Source of the DNA: Naegleria gruberi
Taxonomy: Eukaryota
Assembly (NCBI GenBank): GCA_000004985.1
Contig: GG738888.1
DNA: 64,000 bases
Strand: one strand, 5' to 3'
Translations under genes and position numbers: made by a program
Shown here: piece by piece, positions 20,837-47,485 of the stretch
Position numbering within the stretch: position 1 is the stretch's first letter
Layout: each line of letters starts with the position of its first letter
Notes under the pieces: model-generated
Databases searched by the model: none
The model's input: only the letters and a program-made list of their open reading frames with translations
Told to the model about the DNA's origin: nothing

Positions 20837-22342
20837 ATGCAACCAACACACCACGACAATCCAAAACAACGACTGTCTTACAATTTAAAACGACATTATT
20901 GCCCCACAACTTCTAAAAAACAACACAACAATATGCAATCCAAATCCACATCCAAATTACCAACCACCAAGAGGTTATCTTTGCAAACAACCAATTCCAC
21001 ATCTCGCCTCAACAATGAACATAATAGACGCTCTCTCAATTCATCCACGACTAATTGTGATACATGTTCCACTACATCTAGTAGCACATCCTCAACCAAT
21101 ACTGATTCATTCTACTCAACTACAGAAGCAAGTATGCTGAGTGTGAGTATGGAATTGTTGGACACAATGATTGTTTATCCAGGTGGTAAACACTCAGTGT
21201 TACAACTCAGTGAAAAGCATCGTATATTGTTAGTATTTATCAAATGGTTTGGTTGTCCAATTTGTCAGAATGTCATTGATGACTTACAGAGATATCTGTC
21301 AAGCTTTTTATTGTTAAATATTGTTCCAGTAGTTTGTCATCAAGAAGATATTTCCAAGTTTTCAGAATACCTTTCGAATACTCAATTATTGCATTGTAGG
21401 ATAACCAAGGAAATGAAGAAGGAATTCTCTGTCAAGAAAGCTTCCCTCCTAAAACATGCCAAAGTAATGCCAAGCATGATCAAGTTAATGGTACAGAAAA
21501 AGAAGAAATTCTTCTTGCCTTCAGCTCATGAAATCAAAGGTATGGACATGCTTTCATCATTTGGCATGTATATTGTACATAAGGGACAAGTAACAAGCAG
21601 CTATTCATCTGATATTTTGAATGCAAGACCAGATTATGGTGTTTTCTTGTTCCACTTGAAAGAAGATCATTTATATTCAGATAGTTCATCTCCAGAAGAC
21701 TTTCTTCCAAGACTTTTAAAGCTATTCCCAAACATGAAGATGGTATTTGAGGAATTGAGAGAGAAGAGAAAACAACAACCTGAATTATCATCCCTTCCAC
21801 TCACACCTAGAGGATCTAATTTCAGTACTAGTTTTAAAAACAATGAAGAGGATGAATTCTCATTGAAAAATGTCTTGGAAAATGCAACCATGAGAACATT
21901 CTTCAAGGCCTTCCTATCCAATCAATATTGTTTGGAGCCAGTTATCTTTTATGAGCAAGTTAAAATGTTCAGAATGTTGTGTCAGAGAAGATCACCTGCC
22001 AGCCCATCATTCGAATATCAAATGGAGAATATTCTTGCACACAATTCACCTAGCTCAGCATTGGATTTGAAAATTCAAGAATGCAAACAGAAGGCCGAAT
22101 ACATAATTGATAACTTTTTGAAAGATACCTCCATGTTTCAAATCAATACAAGTGGAAAGTTATTAAGGAAATTATTCTCAGCCATTGAAGAGAAATGCTC
22201 TGATGAAACACTTTTTGATGATATTTTACAAGATATCATATCTAGCATGTTAGTGTTTCGTTTCGAAAATTTTATAGATTCACCTTTTTTCCAAGACATG
22301 ATTCATAGAGTACAATCGAATAAAGTTGTGACATCAAATTGA
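20837..22342 (+). CDS. Thioredoxin-like (PRXL2/AhpC-TSA-like, FGCPIC) + RGS domain protein
   Basis: LLVFIKWFGCPICQNVIDDL resembles the PRXL2/FAM213 redox motif R.FGC..C. The C-terminal half has an RGS signature: FSLKNVLENATMRTFFKAFLSNQYCLEPVIFYEQVKMF ... IIDNFLKDTSMFQIN... Confidence 0.5.
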   Translation: MQPTHHDNPKQRLSYNLKRHYCPTTSKKQHNNMQSKSTSKLPTTKRLSLQTTNSTSRLNNEHNRRSLNSSTTNCDTCSTTSSSTSSTNTDSFYSTTEASMLSVSMELLDTMIVYPGGKHSVLQLSEKHRILLVFIKWFGCPICQNVIDDLQRYLSSFLLLNIVPVVCHQEDISKFSEYLSNTQLLHCRITKEMKKEFSVKKASLLKHAKVMPSMIKLMVQKKKKFFLPSAHEIKGMDMLSSFGMYIVHKGQVTSSYSSDILNARPDYGVFLFHLKEDHLYSDSSSPEDFLPRLLKLFPNMKMVFEELREKRKQQPELSSLPLTPRGSNFSTSFKNNEEDEFSLKNVLENATMRTFFKAFLSNQYCLEPVIFYEQVKMFRMLCQRRSPASPSFEYQMENILAHNSPSSALDLKIQECKQKAEYIIDNFLKDTSMFQINTSGKLLRKLFSAIEEKCSDETLFDDILQDIISSMLVFRFENFIDSPFFQDMIHRVQSNKVVTSN

Positions 22343-22450: not shown

Positions 22451-22531
22451 GTTGAGGTGGCCGAGTGGTTAAGGCGCCAGCCTGCTAAGTTGGTGGAGAA
22501 ATCCGCGTGGGTTCGAATCCCATCCTCAACG
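22451..22531 (+). tRNA. tRNA-Ser(GCT): tRNA-Ser (anticodon GCT), type II with long variable arm
   Basis: The acceptor GTTGAGG pairs with CCTCAAC. D-arm GCC-GAGTGGTTAAG-GGC. Anticodon stem CCAGC/GTTGG with loop CTGCTAA. T-arm GTGGG-TTCGAAT-CCCAT. Discriminator G. A T6 run follows at 22532-22537. Confidence 0.9.
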
Positions 22532-24589: not shown

Positions 24590-25984
24590 NNNNNNNNNNN
24601 NNNNNNNNNNNNNNNNNNNNNNNNNNNNNNNNNNNNNNNNNNNNNNNNNNNNNNNNNNNNNNNNNNNNNNNNNNNNNNNNNNNNNNNNNNNNNNNNNNNN
24701 NNNNNNNNNNNNNNNNNNNNNNNNNNNNNNNNNNNNNNNNNNNNNNNNNNNNNNNNNNNNNNNNNNNNNNNNNNNNNNNNNNNNNNNNNNNNNNNNNNNN
24801 NNNNNNNNNNNNNNNNNNNNNNNNNNNNNNNNNNNNNNNNNNNNNNNNNNNNNNNNNNNNNNNNNNNNNNNNNNNNNNNNNNNNNNNNNNNNNNNNNNNN
24901 NNNNNNNNNNNNNNNNNNNNNNNNNNNNNNNNNNNNNNNNNNNNNNNNNNNNNNNNNNNNNNNNNNNNNNNNNNNNNNNNNNNNNNNNNNNNNNNNNNNN
25001 NNNNNNNNNNNNNNNNNNNNNNNNNNNNNNNNNNNNNNNNNNNNNNNNNNNNNNNNNNNNNNNNNNNNNNNNNNNNNNNNNNNNNNNNNNNNNNNNNNNN
25101 NNNNNNNNNNNNNNNNNNNNNNNNNNNNNNNNNNNNNNNNNNNNNNNNNNNNNNNNNNNNNNNNNNNNNNNNNNNNNNNNNNNNNNNNNNNNNNNNNNNN
25201 NNNNNNNNNNNNNNNNNNNNNNNNNNNNNNNNNNNNNNNNNNNNNNNNNNNNNNNNNNNNNNNNNNNNNNNNNNNNNNNNNNNNNNNNNNNNNNNNNNNN
25301 NNNNNNNNNNNNNNNNNNNNNNNNNNNNNNNNNNNNNNNNNNNNNNNNNNNNNNNNNNNNNNNNNNNNNNNNNNNNNNNNNNNNNNNNNNNNNNNNNNNN
25401 NNNNNNNNNNNNNNNNNNNNNNNNNNNNNNNNNNNNNNNNNNNNNNNNNNNNNNNNNNNNNNNNNNNNNNNNNNNNNNNNNNNNNNNNNNNNNNNNNNNN
25501 NNNNNNNNNNNNNNNNNNNNNNNNNNNNNNNNNNNNNNNNNNNNNNNNNNNNNNNNNNNNNNNNNNNNNNNNNNNNNNNNNNNNNNNNNNNNNNNNNNNN
25601 NNNNNNNNNNNNNNNNNNNNNNNNNNNNNNNNNNNNNNNNNNNNNNNNNNNNNNNNNNNNNNNNNNNNNNNNNNNNNNNNNNNNNNNNNNNNNNNNNNNN
25701 NNNNNNNNNNNNNNNNNNNNNNNNNNNNNNNNNNNNNNNNNNNNNNNNNNNNNNNNNNNNNNNNNNNNNNNNNNNNNNNNNNNNNNNNNNNNNNNNNNNN
25801 NNNNNNNNNNNNNNNNNNNNNNNNNNNNNNNNNNNNNNNNNNNNNNNNNNNNNNNNNNNNNNNNNNNNNNNNNNNNNNNNNNNNNNNNNNNNNNNNNNNN
25901 NNNNNNNNNNNNNNNNNNNNNNNNNNNNNNNNNNNNNNNNNNNNNNNNNNNNNNNNNNNNNNNNNNNNNNNNNNNNNNNNNNNN
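24590..25984. other. Assembly gap (1395 N)
   Basis: Contiguous run of n. ORFs composed of X across it are artefacts. Confidence 1.
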
Positions 25985-34858: not shown

Positions 34859-35269
34859 TTATCCGTCTTCTTCAATGTGATGGAGAAATAGTAATTTTAG
34901 GAGAGCTTTTCGTTGTTCGTTGTNNNNNNNNNNNNNNNNNNNNNNNNNNNNNNNNNNNNNNNNNNNNNNNNNNATTGAAACTCTTCTGTTTCTTAAAGTT
35001 TCGGATGATTTAGTTGCGACTGCATGCTGTTGATCCTGTCCATCGGCAGCTTGGTGTTGCTTAAGATGATATTGGTTCATTATTTTTGGTTGTTGATTGG
35101 TTTCGGCAAGATTACACTGGAAAGTTTGCATGGTTTCGGATTGTTGTGTTGGTGAAGGAAGTCGAAAGTGAACTTCATTTCTCTGAATCCCACTTTGAGG
35201 GTCTAAATTATTGTCTTCCAGACATGCACTAGAATCTAATGAGAAACTAGACGAAAGTTCATCATCCAT
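34859..35269 (-). CDS. Gln-rich hypothetical protein interrupted by a 50-N gap
   Basis: The ORF spans the N-run at 34924..34973. The C-terminus, KALLKLLFLHH, weakly resembles the family Leu-rich tail. The model is unreliable. Confidence 0.25.
   Translation of the reverse strand: MDDELSSSFSLDSSACLEDNNLDPQSGIQRNEVHFRLPSPTQQSETMQTFQCNLAETNQQPKIMNQYHLKQHQAADGQDQQHAVATKSSETLRNRRVSXXXXXXXXXXXXXXXXXXNEQRKALLKLLFLHHIEEDG
34924..34973. other. Assembly gap (50 N)
   Basis: Run of n. Confidence 1.
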
Positions 35270-38526: not shown

Positions 38527-38607
38527 TGCAGAAGGTGGGATTTGAACCCACGAAGCTTGCGCAGTAGAACTTGAGTCTACCCCCTTTGACCACTCGGGAA
38601 CCCCTGC
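38527..38607 (-). tRNA. tRNA-Leu(CAA): tRNA-Leu (anticodon CAA), type II, no intron
   Basis: Minus strand: GCAGGGG-TT-CCC-GAGTGGTCAAA-GGG-G-GTAGA-CTCAAGT-TCTAC-(variable arm)-GTGGG-TTCAAAT-CCCAC-CTTCTGC-A. Acceptor, anticodon and T stems all pair. A T5 run lies 2 nt downstream at 38520-38524. Confidence 0.9.
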
Positions 38608-42930: not shown

Positions 42931-43001
42931 TCGGGTGTGGTATAGTGGTAGCATTCCAGACTGTCACTCTGGCGACCCGGGTTCAATTCCCGGCACTCGA
43001 G
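42931..43001 (+). tRNA. tRNA-Asp(GTC): tRNA-Asp (anticodon GTC)
   Basis: TCGGGTG-TG-GTATAGTGGTAGCAT-T-CCAGA-CTGTCAC-TCTGG-CGAC-CCGGG-TTCAATT-CCCGG-CACTCGA-G. Nearly collinear with metazoan tRNA-Asp. A T5 run lies at 43008-43012. Confidence 0.9.
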
Positions 43002-47412: not shown

Positions 47413-47485
47413 GCTGGCGTAGCTCAGTCGGTAGAGCGTTGGTCTAATAAGCCATTGGTCGCCGGTTCGATCCCGTCCGTCAGCA
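47413..47485 (+). tRNA. tRNA-Ile(AAT): tRNA-Ile (anticodon AAT)
   Basis: GCTGGCG-TA-GCTC-AGTCGGTA-GAGC-G-TTGGT-CTAATAA-GCCAT-TGGTC-GCCGG-TTCGATC-CCGTC-CGTCAGC-A. Closely parallels eukaryotic tRNA-Ile(AAU). There is one T-stem mismatch. T-runs follow at 47491-94 and 47498-47502. Confidence 0.85.

Follow-up and report, generated by a model that had tools for sequence, protein, structure and literature searches.

We analyzed a 64-kb stretch of DNA from Naegleria gruberi (GenBank assembly GCA_000004985.1, contig GG738888.1), hereafter the window, which is AT-rich with a GC content of ~0.34. Within it lies a complete open reading frame (ORF) whose 501-residue product joins a CxxC thioredoxin-fold module to an RGS domain (Table 1). 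A public N. gruberi 'predicted protein' of 469 residues (P0001) matches the ORF product with 100% identity, and its start codon corresponds to Met33 of the ORF, at window position 20933, compared with the ORF opening at 20837. The 32 residues upstream of Met33 are unconserved, and the start codon is ambiguous between these two positions. No membrane-spanning segments are predicted in the protein, and no second copy of either domain was found when the 64-kb window was searched for one.

We are highly confident of the domain order, in which a disordered N-terminus, the CxxC thioredoxin-fold domain, a conserved helical connector and the RGS domain follow one another in one protein. The structural assignments come from an AlphaFold2 (AF2) model built on a 73-sequence alignment; an earlier alignment of 7 sequences had given a predicted local distance difference test score below 50 for residues 1-335. 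In the accepted model the CxxC sits where the first long helix of the thioredoxin-fold domain has its N-terminal end, and the RGS domain contains a lower-confidence insert of ~25 residues (~385-407).

Table 1. The fusion gene, its parts and the other features located in the window
Feature	Position	Strand	Basis or remark
Complete ORF, 501 codons + stop	20837..22342	+	ORF list, no internal stop
Ser/Thr/Asn-rich low-complexity N-terminus, residues 1-104	20837..21148	+	unconserved, predicted disordered
Thioredoxin/peroxiredoxin-fold domain, SelL-related/AhpC-TSA_2/PRXL2-like, residues ~105-271	21149..21649	+	profiles, AF2 fold
CxxC motif C140-P-I-C143 inside KWFGCPICQ	21254..21265	+	read from sequence; aligns with PRXL2B C44/C47
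Two helices after the redox domain, residues 286-313, conserved PEDFLPRLLKLFPNMK motif	21692..21775	+	confident AF2 prediction
Low-confidence short linker, residues 314-341, ~25 residues	21776..21859	+	AF2
RGS domain, residues 342-487	21860..22297	+	Pfam PF00615, AF2 fold
tRNA-Ser(GCT)	22451..22531	+	109 nt 3' of the fusion gene stop codon
Large Avl9/DENN-type gene	from 22753	+	N-terminal part matches Avl9, SPA and DENN families
Assembly gap (N run)	24590..25984		interrupts the Avl9/DENN-type gene
Second assembly gap (N run)	34924..34973		
tRNA-Leu(CAA)	38527..38607	-	
tRNA-Asp(GTC)	42931..43001	+	
tRNA-Ile(AAT)	47413..47485	+	

A preliminary description of this DNA, made from the sequence alone, had allowed that the two domains might belong to separate genes merged by mistake, and had singled out residues 200-330 as the place where a hidden intron or stop might lie. 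No stop is present there and the ORF requires no splicing; across all 501 codons there is neither a stop nor a frameshift. Residues 200-330 include conserved and confidently folded sequence that spans the junction, the N. lovaniensis and N. fowleri orthologues are colinear across both domains, and the connector residues P286, F297, P298, M300 and K301 are invariant among the Naegleria orthologues. The N-terminal module (N-module) precedes the RGS domain, in the same order, in 67 of 122 collected relatives, and about 30 of 64 fusions share (L/M/Y)(F/Y)P as their connector motif. This order recurs in ~60 clusters drawn from at least three genera and from environmental contigs, one of which calls the fusion as one gene. 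Because the ORF is continuous, residues 200-330 include conserved, folded sequence, and the order is kept across genera, it is very unlikely that two adjacent genes, or a gene and a pseudogene, have been read through as one ORF. The fusion is encoded by a single intron-less gene.

The N-module had been described as a thioredoxin-like CxxC module of the PRXL2/AhpC-TSA type, and our analysis bears this out. The motif-bearing segment VLQLSEKHRILLVFIKWFGCPICQNVIDDL lies at residues 120-149, and the NCBIfam profile NF040769 (SelL-related redox protein) matches the module from position 13 to position 166 of its 173 (E=4.6e-11, 42.7 bits). The AF2 model of the module has a thioredoxin-like, Bcp-like fold that resembles PRXL2B and Bcp-type peroxiredoxins, PRXL2B being its best CxxC-type structural match. 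When a Naegleria profile of the module was run with HMMER against 1.84 billion cluster representatives, 115 proteins were retrieved at E<=1e-3, and 39 of these reached E<=1e-10. P0060, a short standalone match (E=9e-8), passes the thresholds of PF13911 (34.1 bits, cut-off 27), PF00578 and PF08534 (Redoxin). Five of six standalone relatives pass the NF040769 cut-off of 120 bits, scoring 127-139 bits, and the sixth, P0110, reaches 118.6. A profile of the query module and 20 standalone relatives aligned the whole domain to human PRXL2B/FAM213B, the prostamide/prostaglandin F synthase (9us9_A; E=3.9e-10), and placed the family CxxC on the catalytic C44-V-V-C47 (LRRFGCVVC); on the C44S/C47S mutant chain of PRXL2B the score dropped from 43 to 27 bits. 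These results support the N-module as a CxxC thioredoxin-fold domain of the AhpC-TSA_2/PRXL2/SelL superfamily.

Within this superfamily the query is divergent. Its 42.7 bits fall well short of the 120-bit NF040769 cut-off, making it a homologous relative and not a member of that family. PF13911 (AhpC-TSA_2) gives no match in Pfam to the query or its Naegleria orthologues, and PF00578 (AhpC-TSA) scores 12.5 bits on the query against a gathering threshold of 26. Sub-threshold AhpC-TSA matches (E 0.013-0.16) recur in all four orthologues with the N-module region, and a sub-threshold DUF929 hint was also seen in Pfam. In profile searches both halves gave matches well outside what chance would produce: the RGS half passes Pfam and the N-module matches NF040769, with the N-module staying below all curated cut-offs. 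Direct comparisons with PRXL2B were similarly weak. With hhalign, the alignment from a Naegleria-only profile was confined to 27 columns around the CxxC, at a probability of 4%, and a hidden Markov model (HMM) of the fusion N-modules scored 14 bits, which at PDB scale (E ~0.3) is not significant. The Naegleria-only profile had no matches among PDB sequences, and phmmer with the whole protein returned nothing useful from the same set. In PGFS (PRXL2B), Arg40/Arg41 before the CxxC are strictly conserved and position the substrate (PMC12938796); the corresponding query residues are Lys/Trp (F-I-K-W-F-G-C). Because the direct comparisons are weak, we place the kinship to animal PRXL2 at the superfamily level only, where the link runs through SelL-like intermediates, and do not claim close PRXL2 orthology. 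A classical peroxiredoxin was rejected because the P-x3-T/S-x2-C motif is absent: the query reads L-L-V-F-I-K-W-F-G-C up to C140, with no Pro at -7 and no Thr/Ser at -3, and PF00578 stays below its gathering score.

The query shares with PRXL2B/FAM213B and the PF13911 family the thioredoxin/Bcp-like fold, a CxxC at the same helix N-terminus and the F-G-C-x-x-C context. Unlike PRXL2B, a 198-residue chain in the solved entries, it carries an extra His-containing 'CHQE' motif, longer inserts and the RGS fusion. With the SelL-related proteins of NF040769, the closest curated profile, it has in common the motifs F-x5-CxxC and, at the C-terminus, (D/A)RPDY, together with a His that follows beta3; true members are membrane-anchored forms or standalone proteins of ~170-190 residues, and not RGS fusions.

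The RGS signature that the preliminary description had placed in the C-terminal third, TFFKAFLSNQYCLEPVIFYEQVKMF at residues 354-378, falls inside the Pfam match. PF00615 (RGS) matches the query with E=3.4e-11 and 44 bits (gathering 23.9) over model positions 1-116 of 117, and the AF2 model contains the all-helical RGS fold. Membership of the query in the RGS family is therefore established. A phmmer search of PDB sequences with the RGS region alone gave no direct match to any solved RGS domain; family member P0015, a canonical one that keeps N88, D163 and R167, aligns directly with RGS17, RGS8 and RGS4. For 61 RGS domains of the fusion family, we located the positions that contact G-alpha in RGS4 numbering, the numbering of the RGS4 sequence having been checked against its known key residues. 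E87 is kept in 60 of the 61 domains and N128 in 56, and both are present in the query. The other positions are less well kept in the family (R167 in 45/61, N88 in 33/61 and D163 in 31/61) and are lost in the query, which has Asn, Pro and Phe, respectively; these losses are common to the Naegleria clade. Since the canonical contact residues are mostly kept, most members look like working RGS domains competent as GTPase-activating proteins (GAPs). For the Naegleria clade these substitutions suggest a domain that may bind G-alpha while its GAP activity is weak or altered, and GAP activity of the query itself is doubtful because N88, D163 and R167 are replaced. The query resembles R4/RZ-type (RGS4, RGS17, RGS8) and SNX13-type RGS domains in its fold and in the equivalents of E87 and N128. 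It differs from these in the three replaced residues and in its ~25-residue insert.

All relatives that bear an organism name belong to Heterolobosea; ~40 further clusters are metagenome or read-archive assemblies. Members were found in N. gruberi (the query, D2VNP2 and D2VWB4), N. fowleri (FDP41_001481, FDP41_001482 and FDP41_009112), N. lovaniensis (two), Willaertia magna (at least three) and Acrasis kona (at least four), and profile searches of a word-indexed protein database added almost no further relatives. The fusion is a multi-gene family with a fixed architecture of N-module plus RGS domain. Its members are labeled in public records only as 'RGS domain-containing', 'predicted' or 'hypothetical' proteins, so the redox half is hidden by current annotation.

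Of the 59 fusions that cover the region, 54 have an intact CxxC, as do 28 of 32 standalone relatives. Alignment A3 shows conservation of at least 90% for both cysteines and alignment A5 no variation at all, although a few family members have lost one of them. PRXL2B uses its CxxC thiols to reduce an endoperoxide, after which the thiols are themselves reduced again (PMC12938796), and PRXL2A, alias adiporedoxin, has been described as a redox-regulatory protein (PMC5150245). By analogy, the CxxC module is probably a thiol-disulfide redox center. Alternatively, the thioredoxin fold could be a redox-inert scaffold that binds proteins in a phosducin-like manner, its two cysteines being structural or metal-binding. 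Phosducin and phosducin-like proteins use a thioredoxin-fold domain to regulate heterotrimeric G proteins, a precedent for the reuse of such folds as binding modules in this pathway. The score of the module below every curated family cut-off and the loss of one Cys in a few members would also fit a scaffold. The phosducin domain has no CxxC; it binds G-beta-gamma and is not known to be joined to an RGS domain, and phosducin is not among the top structural matches of the query AF2 model. Conservation of the CxxC makes the redox-inert scaffold less likely, and we regard it as improbable.

Our preferred reading, to which we would give slightly less than an even chance, is that the redox state of the CxxC modulates RGS engagement of G-alpha. 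As in PRXL2 proteins, peroxides or the thioredoxin/glutathione system would drive C140 and C143 back and forth from dithiol to disulfide. With the two domains forming one unit, the redox state of the CxxC would alter how the RGS domain engages GTP-bound G-alpha, and heterotrimeric G-protein signals would thereby have their lifetime or their output tied to the redox state of the cell. The structured connector, the fixed fusion and the high predicted template modeling score (pTM) suggest joint action of the two domains as one unit; we infer 'redox sensing' by the fusion protein. A stronger version, in which oxidation or reduction of the CxxC directly gates the RGS domain on GTP-bound G-alpha as a hard-wired switch, and heterolobosean amoebae including N. 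fowleri would tune chemosensory signals to oxidative conditions, is conceivable and on the unlikely side.

Several of the results described above weigh against redox modulation of RGS engagement, namely the sub-threshold scores of the module, its poor direct matches to PRXL2B, the replaced arginine pair, and the loss of N88, D163 and R167 from the query, with its doubtful GAP activity. To these must be added that a low-confidence linker of ~25 residues parts the two modules in the AF2 model, and that inter-domain packing is a deduction from the pTM.

The altered contacts fit at least as well with a different division of labor, in which the CxxC module, like PRXL2B, is a reductase of lipid hydroperoxides, endoperoxides or protein disulfides that the RGS domain docks onto activated membrane G-alpha. 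That would place the protein among the effectors of G-alpha, like the RGS-RhoGEFs or GRK2, and not among redox-gated GAPs. Consistent with such targeting, the Naegleria-clade RGS domain lacks three of five contact residues yet is well folded and keeps E87 and N128, the CxxC is strongly conserved, and among solved structures the nearest CxxC relative, the prostaglandin F (PGF) synthase, has an enzymatic function (PMC12938796). In addition, an N. fowleri RGS-RhoGEF acts as a G-alpha effector through the canonical RGS interface (PMC9283941). The canonical GAP-like residues in most non-Naegleria members speak against a targeted enzyme, as does the absence from the query of the substrate-positioning arginines of PRXL2B. 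We consider this, the main alternative, realistic, although not likely, and retain modulation of RGS engagement by the CxxC as the preferred reading.

The collected relatives include several variants of the architecture. The N. fowleri paralogues P0003 (FDP41_001481) and P0124 (FDP41_001482) have consecutive locus tags, which suggests tandem duplication in that species; the N. gruberi window has a single copy. In N. lovaniensis, paralogue P0005 (437 residues) is ~80 residues short of its relatives because the redox module lacks its second half; either the deletion is real or the gene model contains a mispredicted intron. Larger versions of the fusion occur in environmental sequences (P0024, 1205 residues; P0026, 1007 residues); in P0024, ankyrin repeats detected by Pfam precede the CxxC module, and the RGS-like C-terminus is matched by our custom HMM and not by Pfam. 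Many members of an Acrasis-type subfamily (including P0042, P0052, P0073, P0089, P0092, P0093 and P0095) have a conserved Cys pair in the linker, for example C-(D/N/E)-G-(V/L)-Y-C, which replaces the (L/M)(F/Y)P connector motif and is a second candidate redox or metal site. In the environmental proteins P0054 (686 residues) and P0068 (797 residues) CxxS or CxxT is the degenerate remnant of the CxxC, and the RGS-like region at the C-terminus has decayed too far for the custom HMM, being read by eye in P0054 only; both domains may be decaying jointly in one lineage. Finally, standalone relatives of ~300-340 residues (P0050, P0071, P0074, P0084, P0091, P0094 and P0103) carry a hydrophobic extension of ~140 residues before the SelL-related domain, probably a membrane anchor, and represent a distinct, non-RGS architecture.

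The neighbors of the fusion gene are of other kinds. Upstream lie genes for an M20 peptidase and a ubiquitin-like/UBA protein, both unrelated to the fusion. Downstream, the tRNA-Ser gene is followed by the Avl9/DENN-type gene, and further tRNA genes are scattered through the window (Table 1).

To our knowledge, no dedicated redox-sensor-RGS protein has been described. A full-text literature search found no description of an RGS domain together with peroxiredoxin, AhpC-TSA_2, PRXL2/FAM213 or a thioredoxin-like domain in one protein; the older RGS survey of Anantharaman et al. lies outside its coverage. RGS domains pair with many partner domains (PMC3971589), and the partners given in the main text of that study are DEP, cNMP-binding, kinase, Rho GTPase, LRR, START and ankyrin domains, with no redoxin there. 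N. fowleri encodes 28 seven-transmembrane (7TM)-RGS proteins and 79 other RGS proteins (PMC9283941), and alongside the Naegleria 7TM-RGS, RGS-RhoGEF and other multi-domain RGS proteins of eukaryotes the query is one more product of RGS domain shuffling. RGS domains and PRXL2/SelL-type redoxins are each well known separately; what the fusion adds is an RGS protein with a previously unrecognized partner domain. Genomes of Naegleria, Willaertia and Acrasis each contain several paralogues; these, the dozens of environmental relatives and the near-invariant CxxC argue for a functional combination over an accidental one.

Overall, the architecture is well conserved, the RGS domain of the query is atypical and function is inferred throughout. 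Should the CxxC control the RGS domain, or the RGS domain target a reductase to active G-alpha, the fusion would provide a direct molecular link between oxidant signaling and G-protein signaling, and published assays with recombinant Naegleria G-alpha and RGS proteins (PMC9283941) would make this link easy to test. Because the lethal pathogen N. fowleri, whose G-protein pathways are considered as drug targets, carries orthologues of the fusion, such a link would also have some relevance to the pathogen.
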